From: Escherichia coli
GTDB taxonomy: Bacteria > Pseudomonadota > Gammaproteobacteria > Enterobacterales > Enterobacteriaceae
Reading direction: 5' to 3' (one strand)
Assembly (NCBI RefSeq): GCF_003334815.1
Contig: NZ_QOWO01000102.1
DNA: 1,257 bases
The position numbers and the translations under genes were made by a program. Positions 1 to 1,257 of the stretch are shown here, piece after piece. Every line of letters starts with the position of its first letter. Position 1 is the first letter of the stretch. The notes under the pieces are model-generated. The model was not told the origin of the DNA. It saw only the letters and a program-made list of their open reading frames with translations, and searched no databases.

Positions 1-35
1 CTGTCGGCTTCCAGTGTCAGGGCCAGTTTCATCAT
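1..35 (-). CDS. 5' end only (11 codons, [11 protein letters not shown]...) of a downstream small gene that continues past the window edge; its position matches the YeeW-like gene that follows CbtA-family toxins
   Basis: Minus-strand ATG at 35..33 overlaps the toxin TGA stop at 34..32 (ATGA), and the frame stays open to position 1. The YeeW-like assignment comes from the conserved gene order of this cassette, not from the 11 residues themselves. Confidence 0.4.
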
Positions 36-406
36 TTCGCCTCCGGATACTTACCCAGGGTGATATTGTTCACCGTTCTGTAGTTGTGGCGGGTCATCAG
101 GCCTGTTGCCCGGCGAGCCCGGAGAATATCAATGCTGTTGATTAACTGCGACGAGGCTCCTGCGCTGAATCCCGGCTGGTCAGTTCGTACCAGTGCGTAT
201 TTTTCCACGAGAAAGTTCACTGCATCACACAGTGAAATGCCTGCCTCAATATGCTGCTCAATCACGCGTTCATCCACGAACGGTGTGTCATTCAGCGTAA
301 GGCTGTAATGCTGGCCCAGTAGTCGGGAGAGCAGAGTCTGCCAGATGGTGACGGGAGACGGGCAGCACGATACCTCCCGTACATGCGTGTCGGGTAATGT
401 TTTCAT
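32..406 (-). CDS. cbtA: CbtA/YeeV-family toxin of a type IV toxin-antitoxin system (124 aa), the cytoskeleton-targeting toxin family
   Basis: The 124-aa ORF from the track starts MKTLP and ends [11 protein letters not shown]. Its length and long conserved stretches ([80 protein letters not shown]) match the E. coli YeeV/CbtA family as I recall it. Start is ATG 406..404 with an AGGA about 11 nt upstream; stop is TGA 34..32. Which paralogue it is (yeeV, ykfI or ypjF type) cannot be settled without alignment; the length and C-terminus favour yeeV. Confidence 0.9.
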
Positions 407-495
407 ACTGAAGATTTTCCTGATATGCAGAGATAAAAAATGGGACAGTGGCGTGGTGAAAACACCAGGCCGGAGCAGAAGGTTATTCTGGTGGT

Positions 496-864
496 TTACT
501 TTTTCGTTTCAGGTGTCGGATAAACAGCCAGATAAACGTAACCACAGGAGCCGAGGGTGTCTGCTTCACAGGTCAGCCCCTTCGCATACAGTGTCACGGT
601 ATGCTGATGGCGGGGATTCAGTTCACCACTGGTGAGCATTAATTTCAGTTGTTTCATCAGCAGCGGAAAGGCCTGGTCCAGAGGGTACGCATCCGCATCT
701 CTGAACCGGCCTCTGATACCGGCACGGTCGGCAAGGTAATGCAACCGGTTACCCTCCTGCACCAGACGGGCGCCGAAACAGGGCGTCACTGTGCAGGGTA
801 GTCCCCACCAGGGATGGTCGTCATTGTCATCGGGATGCGTTGTCCCGGAAAGTGTGTCTGACAC
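496..864 (-). CDS. cbeA: CbeA/YeeU-family type IV antitoxin (122 aa from a GTG start); cognate antitoxin of the CbtA-family toxin
   Basis: The track ORF 496..972 contains the sequence VSDTLSGTT...[36 protein letters not shown]...[19 protein letters not shown], which matches YeeU/CbeA as I recall it. The GTG at 864..862 sits 7 nt after GAGGA (876..872) and gives the family-typical 122 aa; the stop is TAA 498..496. The gene lies 89 nt upstream of the toxin on the same strand, the usual antitoxin-then-toxin order. Confidence 0.88.
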
Positions 865-871
865 GATAAAA

Positions 872-876
872 TCCTC
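872..876 (-). promoter_or_regulatory. Shine-Dalgarno element (GAGGA) for the antitoxin GTG start
   Basis: The minus strand reads ctgtGAGGAttttatcGTG, putting GAGGA 7 nt upstream of the GTG at 864..862. Confidence 0.55.
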
Positions 877-913
877 ACAGAAAATCGGTGAATGATAGTT
901 TAACGATGACGGG

Positions 914-1027
914 TCAGCCGGTGCACAGACCGGCTTCGGTGAAGGTGTATTCGTTGATGAGCAGGACCTCATCCACAGCGGCGTCTGAGCTCAGCCAGTC
1001 GTACTCGTTTTCCGGGTGACGGAACAT
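914..1027 (-). CDS. Hypothetical 37-aa acidic small ORF (MFRHPENEYDWLSSDAAVDEVLLINEYTFTEAGLCTG) between the YeeT-like gene and the antitoxin; not in the supplied track
   Basis: ATG at 1027..1025 overlaps the YeeT-like TGA stop at 1029..1027 (cTGATGttc), and the stop is TGA 916..914. Hand-translated from the sequence. About 28 of 36 third codon positions are G or C and G is enriched at first positions; most codons are E. coli-preferred (CTG, CCG, GAA, AAC, TAC, ACC, GGT, CGT, TTC, ATC). There is no Shine-Dalgarno of its own, so expression would need coupling to the upstream gene. Confidence 0.3.
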   Translation of the reverse strand: MFRHPENEYDWLSSDAAVDEVLLINEYTFTEAGLCTG

Positions 1028-1248
1028 CAGTTCAGGGTGACGCTCATCAGCCGGACATACGGACCAAAACTGTCCTTACGGCGTTCTGCAAACACGGCCA
1101 GCACACCGGGAATATCCTGCACTTCACGACCGGTATACGCTTCAGCACTGCCGTGCCAGCGGTATTTGCCGGTACAGAACGGAAAAAGACGGGATGCCGG
1201 ATGCTGACGGTGAATACGCATGGCTTCGCCACGGGTGATGATTTTCAT
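1027..1248 (-). CDS. yeeT: YeeT-like small protein (DUF987 family, 73 aa) conserved immediately upstream of CbeA/CbtA modules
   Basis: The 73-aa track ORF MKIITRGEAMRIHRQHPASRLFPFCTGKYRWHGSAEAYTGREVQDIPGVLAVFAERRKDSFGPYVRLMSVTLN matches YeeT/YkfH/YpjJ-type proteins as I recall them. It has an ATG at 1248..1246 and a TGA at 1029..1027. Its ribosome-binding site and promoter lie beyond the window edge. Confidence 0.85.
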   Translation of the reverse strand: MKIITRGEAMRIHRQHPASRLFPFCTGKYRWHGSAEAYTGREVQDIPGVLAVFAERRKDSFGPYVRLMSVTLN

Positions 1249-1257
1249 AGTGGGATA

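Follow-up and report, generated by a model that had tools for sequence, protein, structure and literature searches.

We analyzed a stretch of 1,257 nucleotides (nt) of Escherichia coli DNA (contig NZ_QOWO01000102.1, in the following called the window) and consider it very probable that it is a copy, from the CP4-44 lineage, of the E. coli yeeT-cbeA-cbtA(-DUF5983) module, in which cbtA encodes a putative toxin and cbeA its antitoxin; the parts of this reading that we infer are the toxic activity and what it acts on, neutralisation in the type IV manner, the organisation as an operon and the position of the window itself in the chromosome. Genomic islands of the P4-integrase type (CP4-44, CP4-6, CP4-57 and the leuX islands) have this module as their conserved distal end. 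All meaningful open reading frames (ORFs) of the window lie on the minus strand, where a yeeT-like gene of the DUF987 family (1027-1248, 73 residues) is followed by a cbeA/yeeU-family antitoxin gene (496-864, 122 residues, GTG start), a cbtA/yeeV-family toxin gene (32-406, 124 residues) and the 5' end of a DUF5983 (yeeW-like) gene, of which 11 codons are present before it is cut by the window edge (1-35). As a system, the cassette has been described before, and in E. coli it is extremely common.

The three family assignments made in the initial annotation were borne out by Pfam matches far beyond chance. The YeeT protein matches PF06174 over model positions 1-65 of 65 (E 1.7e-40) and is 97% identical to K-12 YeeT, and CbtA matches PF06755 over model positions 1-112 of 112 (E 9.1e-59), with 85% identity to K-12 CbtA and 61% to YkfI. 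CbeA is 89% identical to K-12 CbeA and matches the two YeeU structures PDB 2inw and 2h28 (E 5e-75 and 7e-74, respectively), while the CbeA_antitoxin model (PF06154) matches residues 54-153 of an ORF at 496-972 with an E-value of 1e-52. This extended ORF of 158 residues was ruled out as the antitoxin gene, since the Pfam match is confined to residues 54-153 and since RefSeq, which annotates WP_001295723.1 at the equivalent coordinates, uses the GTG at 864 in every close relative, as K-12 does too. A GAGGA ribosome-binding site (876-872) is found 7 nt upstream of this GTG, within a leader (865-913) that is nearly invariant across 11 alleles; in the last 34 nt before and into the start, 33 of 34 positions match K-12. 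The cbeA gene ends 89 nt upstream of cbtA on the same strand, and this spacer (407-495) measures 46 nt in other paralogues. Because the identities are 97, 89 and 85% to the K-12 CP4-44 proteins and 61% to YkfI, the window copy is assigned, on its protein sequences, to the CP4-44 lineage.

Selection on the three genes was quantified between diverged alleles as the ratio of nonsynonymous to synonymous differences per site (pN/pS, Nei-Gojobori counts), which gave 0.03-0.12 for yeeT, 0.09-0.15 for cbtA and 0.17-0.42 for cbeA. With all values between 0.03 and 0.42, it is clear that yeeT, cbeA and cbtA are kept by purifying selection. The yeeT gene is under stronger purifying selection than either the toxin or the antitoxin gene. 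Its product belongs to phrog_14887, a PHROG of unknown function, and in a preprint YeeT, YkfH and YpjJ were tried as candidate antirepressors, where their overexpression led to neither filamentation nor growth inhibition of the kind that Rem produced.

Sequences matching the window are present in 4935 of 5426 complete E. coli genomes (4942 records), with a median of 3 places per genome. The exact YeeT, CbeA and CbtA sequences are each already public and labelled E. coli, and identical proteins are found on as many as 1000 or more contigs. The window differs from its closest genomes at five bases, namely position 562 and a cluster at 922, 925, 932 and 941. The cluster matches the leuX-island allele, for which reason we suspect a short gene-conversion tract; the pattern suggests that it was exchanged between paralogous cassette copies at 922-941.

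As the window carries no flanks, its genomic context was read from near-identical copies (98.7-99.6% identity). All near-identical copies that we examined have a RadC/JAB gene as the immediate upstream neighbour, in the same orientation, and most of them also have an intact antirestriction gene upstream (the gene calls for copies L016-L020 list none); the upstream neighbours expected in the initial annotation were thus recovered in these relatives. The surroundings of these copies further comprise insertion sequence (IS) elements, Ag43 and a YeeP-like GTPase. The exact CbtA allele of the window occurs at the CP4-44 chromosomal locus, with RadC and DUF987 upstream and with a shortened DUF5983 gene, IS110/IS21 and then tmaR, yeeA, dacD and sbcB downstream. 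Other close copies show the leuX-island order, which runs GTPase, Ag43, YeeR-like, IrmA, DUF905, DUF932, antirestriction, RadC, DUF987, CbeA, CbtA, DUF5983 and DUF957. An integrase and a transfer RNA (tRNA) attachment site, which had been proposed as features to look for, were seen in the relative B18271, where tRNA-Leu bounds the island, next to a degenerate tyrosine integrase (a pseudogene) approximately 44 kb from the cassette, and CP4-6 abuts thrW. The claimed resemblance to CP4-44, CP4-6 and CP4-57 likewise agrees with the annotated order in these K-12 elements, which is antirestriction, RadC/JAB, DUF987, antitoxin and toxin.

What the module would do is described by work on the K-12 homologues. 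K-12 CbtA binds FtsZ and MreB directly and independently, so that division and elongation are blocked and the cells become lemon-shaped, and K-12 CbeA counters CbtA without binding it, by stabilising the polymers, which defines the type IV mode (PMC5371832, PMC5624674). By homology, the CbtA of the window would be a small toxin that binds FtsZ (at the H6/H7 loop, with F65 required) and MreB and blocks both division and elongation, and CbeA, encoded just upstream, would neutralise it without contact by stabilising the target polymers. All three K-12 toxins require F65 to bind FtsZ (PMC5624674), and FtsZ targeting by the window CbtA is likely because it has F at position 65. The module would moreover be transcribed as part of a longer operon: the promoter scan detected no sigma-70-like site on the minus strand of the window, the genes are tightly packed, and stop and start codons overlap at two junctions (TGATG between yeeT and the ORF that follows it, ATGA between cbtA and DUF5983), for which reasons we think that transcription probably starts upstream of the window.

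Several points weigh against this reading and have to be set beside it. The best locus identity to the window was 99.6% and none reached 100%, which means that the flanks are those of relatives. Look-ups with the exact CbtA and with the exact 37-residue peptide of the spacer ORF described below yielded loci of 99.6% identity at best, and an exact-match search with a 150-mer gave no match. Residues 6-15 of the window CbtA (362-391 on the minus strand) are wholly different from the K-12 segment VLPGQAASSR, and position 15 is C and not R; in K-12 CbtA, the R15C substitution abolishes MreB binding (PMC5624674). Finally, the type IV mode would be carried over from the K-12 homologues, the sole proteins where it has been demonstrated. 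On the other hand, C15 is the native residue of both YkfI and YpjF, of which YpjF binds MreB nonetheless, and a C15R change was without effect in either (PMC5624674). With C15 and different residues 6-15 on one side and an MreB-binding YpjF that has C15 on the other, MreB targeting by the window CbtA is uncertain. Among the collected E. coli alleles the N-terminal form of the window and C15 are common, and it is the K-12 form that is the outlier.

The spacer between yeeT and cbeA (865-1026) is 162 nt long in the window compared with 73 nt in K-12, and the two sequences are mostly unrelated. In the strains SK0832, AVS0967, Ec1117 and strain 10 an intact gene of 214-227 residues is located between the DUF987 and antitoxin genes, and RefSeq names its product "DUF8835 domain-containing", "hypothetical" or "antitoxin of toxin-antitoxin stability system" (copies L004 and L005 carry a propagated typing error, 'DUF8835 domain-containing pootine'). 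The window spacer aligns with the last 113 nt of this DUF8835 gene and the leader downstream of it, and an ORF of 37 codons plus stop (914-1027) aligns in frame with the C-terminal tail of the 214-residue protein. The window lacks approximately 550 nt at 1026/1027, precisely behind the yeeT stop codon, and the ATG of the ORF was made at the deletion junction, where it overlaps that stop codon. Both of the conserved DUF8835 motifs, SQGDGACFEG and HRGRYxH, lie in the deleted part. Judged by this alignment, the 37-codon ORF has to be regarded as a gene remnant and not as a member of the DUF8835 family, and it is a feature that the initial annotation overlooked when it called the cassette complete.

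All seven deletion alleles in the alignment share one and the same junction, even those of the O157 type, which are about 15% diverged. A 100-nt probe across the junction was fully covered in 3038 complete genomes, which is a lower bound for deletion carriers, and the 550 nt that were lost occur in 1939 genomes. Since an identical junction is shared by diverged alleles and by at least 3038 genomes, the window-type loss is one old deletion, and the yeeT-cbeA spacer is the scar of this event, which took most of the DUF8835 gene. The corresponding spacer of K-12 CP4-44 (15040-15112 of the K-12 locus L002) has kept the start codon and approximately 8 codons of the gene (MSRIIATT..., 27 of 29 nt) and lost the rest; as the window keeps the 3' tail and K-12 only the first 8 or so codons, the two deletions are independent. 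A third allele type consists of in-frame DUF8835-CbeA fusions of 342-343 residues (P0064, P0081 and about 15 similar clusters, on E. coli contigs), which arise from a short deletion between both genes. A search with a 32-mer of the deletion junction gave as its sole match the contig NZ_JAFCGY010000134.1 from a Mesorhizobium caraganae assembly. This contig of 464 nt, with a coverage of about 0.74, has the E. coli-type junction and 92% identity to the window, and it is probably E. coli contamination.

The DUF8835 family itself comprises 2888 proteins at E <= 1e-5. Homologues with approximately 60% identity are found on alphaproteobacterial plasmids, and others with 34-39% identity in Caulobacter, Brevundimonas and Pseudomonas phages; the antitoxin label is attached to family proteins of other mobile elements, including the alphaproteobacterial plasmids. 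The DUF8835 protein had no match in the Pfam, NCBIfam or PADLOC libraries, and its sole PHROG match was phrog_5162, of unknown function. Its fold is confidently predicted, with no solved relative.

It could be argued that the 37-codon ORF encodes a small protein that is functional and whose translation is coupled to that of yeeT via TGATG, given that it is open with start and stop unchanged in 7 of 7 aligned deletion alleles, the diverged ones included, and that gene calls on public contigs include the exact 37-residue peptide. The substitution pattern speaks against it: pN/pS of the remnant is 0.84-3.6 in deletion alleles (calculated from few substitutions), whereas these codons give 0.16-0.6 where the gene is intact, and the neighbouring genes give 0.03-0.42. 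The remnant evolves without protein-level constraint, and these ratios lead us to regard it as a fragment in decay rather than a micro-protein. The ORF is, furthermore, the in-frame tail of a larger protein, differs at 12 of 37 residues between the window type and the O157 type, and is without RefSeq annotation, all of which makes a coding function very unlikely. Extending such decay to the whole cassette, so that it would be a non-functional relic like much of the surrounding island, seems to us improbable as well. The neighbouring island genes of the closest relatives are heavily pseudogenised and broken by IS elements, the array has lost one gene, and DUF5983 is reduced to 68 residues in genomes with the exact CbtA allele; against this stand three full-length ORFs with complete Pfam model coverage, the purifying selection on all three, and the recurrence of identical proteins on as many as 1000 or more contigs. 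The K-12 elements bear the name cryptic prophages, and related sequence is found in 62 of 72,556 plasmid records and in one phage record, a 3.2-kb fragment, so that carriage by a phage or plasmid instead of a chromosomal island might be considered. With a single hit among 50,697 phage records, with several of the best plasmid records being chromosome-sized (4.8-4.9 Mb), and with 13,758 of the 13,765 E. coli match places being chromosomal, we give this origin next to no credence. The claim of a cryptic prophage or integrated element thus stood in its second half, supported by the island context of the near-identical copies, and calls for a caveat in its first: "integrated island" fits better than "prophage" because the cassette occurs in just one of the phage records. 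Prophage is the historical label and integrated island the accurate description.

A different question is whether yeeT, DUF8835, cbeA, cbtA and DUF5983 constitute a single multi-component unit, such as one for island establishment or anti-defence, with toxicity towards the cytoskeleton as a side effect of overexpression. This would agree with an array gene order that is fixed across alleles with overlapping or short junctions, with a yeeT gene that is more constrained than the toxin-antitoxin genes, with the in-frame DUF8835-CbeA fusions, with the name 'antitoxin' that the DUF8835 family bears on other mobile elements, and with the report that CbeA, YagB and YfjZ are translocated via the type IV secretion system of the F plasmid (PMC11288057). 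However, in K-12 toxicity and rescue need no more than CbtA and CbeA (PMC5371832, PMC5624674), most copies no longer have DUF8835, CP4-6 and CP4-57 are without both DUF8835 and DUF5983, and there was no PADLOC match; we find such a unit unlikely. Equally tentative, and in our opinion doubtful, is an ancestral five-gene array in which the DUF8835 protein acted in CbtA control or in island establishment. If this were true, the three rearranged allele types (the window deletion, the K-12 deletion and the CbeA fusions) would represent a stepwise domestication, and the description of a two-gene 'type IV' system would be incomplete. We prefer the reading of the window as a CP4-44-lineage toxin-antitoxin module at the end of an integrated island.

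The gene order DUF987, antitoxin, toxin and overlapping downstream gene was correctly given in the initial annotation, except that the downstream gene is not small: DUF5983 has 163 residues when intact, and only its first 35 nt are inside the window. The cassette is complete in the sense that its three ORFs are full length, and with respect to DUF5983 it is not, since this gene is cut by the window edge. The 11 codons present are identical to the start of the 163-residue DUF5983 protein of E24377A, and the gene is annotated in all top matches to the window. In all genomes with the exact CbtA allele of the window, DUF5983 is cut to 68 residues and followed by IS110/IS21. The intact gene spans 19544-20035 of locus L003, and the shortened one 10372-10578 of loci L016-L021. 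A 2026 preprint has tied DUF5983 and AntiFam ANF00264 to a possible programmed frameshift beside cbtA.

Scans for further elements in the window were largely negative. Promoter-like sites were found only on the plus strand, antisense to the genes (2 found, 0.5 expected), and the terminator scan gave no convincing minus-strand terminator. The Rfam scan of the window identified no family, and at a permissive threshold it gave one chance-level match, to snoRNA sR12, with 16.9 bits compared with a gathering score of 38. RNA folding of the yeeT-cbeA spacer (z -0.49) and of the cbeA-cbtA spacer (z -1.37) was no better than that of shuffled sequence, with no Rfam match for either. The repeat search returned short two-copy matches only, of a kind often due to chance, and no meaningful repeat. 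None of the proteins matched NCBIfam or PADLOC, and their matches in PHROGs were to families of unknown function only.

Collectively, the window is a marker of island DNA that E. coli acquired horizontally, carries a textbook toxin-antitoxin pair and has little import beyond annotation, to which the DUF8835 remnant, the cut DUF5983 gene and the observations on the DUF8835 family are minor additions. Two aspects reach somewhat further. Many E. coli copies, the K-12 reference included, are deletion derivatives of a longer array that contains DUF8835, a broadly distributed mobile-element gene. In addition, the K-12 CbtA used in the mechanistic studies is atypical in the N-terminal segment that is the MreB determinant, and for this reason the conclusions about MreB binding may not extend to the common alleles.

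Among the known systems, the CbtA/CbeA (YeeV/YeeU) pair of K-12 CP4-44 with YeeT and YeeW is directly comparable to the window in gene order and strand relationship. Its cbeA-cbtA spacer is 88 nt, compared with 89 nt in the window, and approximately 93% identical, and the overlap of its cbtA with the following gene is of the same kind. It differs in the 73-nt yeeT-cbeA spacer, where the window has 162 nt with the DUF8835 3' tail, and in CbtA residues 6-15, which are entirely unlike those of the window and end in R15 instead of C15. YkfI/YafW of CP4-6 and YpjF/YfjZ of CP4-57 share the Pfam families and the upstream order with the window, and their toxins have the C15 and F65 of the window CbtA, whereas their proteins are shorter, their spacers measure 18-37 nt, and both the DUF8835 remnant and the downstream DUF5983 gene are absent. 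The five-gene array of SK0832, AVS0967, Ec1117 and strain 10 (DUF987, DUF8835, CbeA, CbtA and DUF5983) is approximately 88-96% identical to the window at the nucleotide level over the shared parts and has the same cbeA leader, and what sets it apart is the intact DUF8835 gene of 214-227 residues that is deleted in the window.

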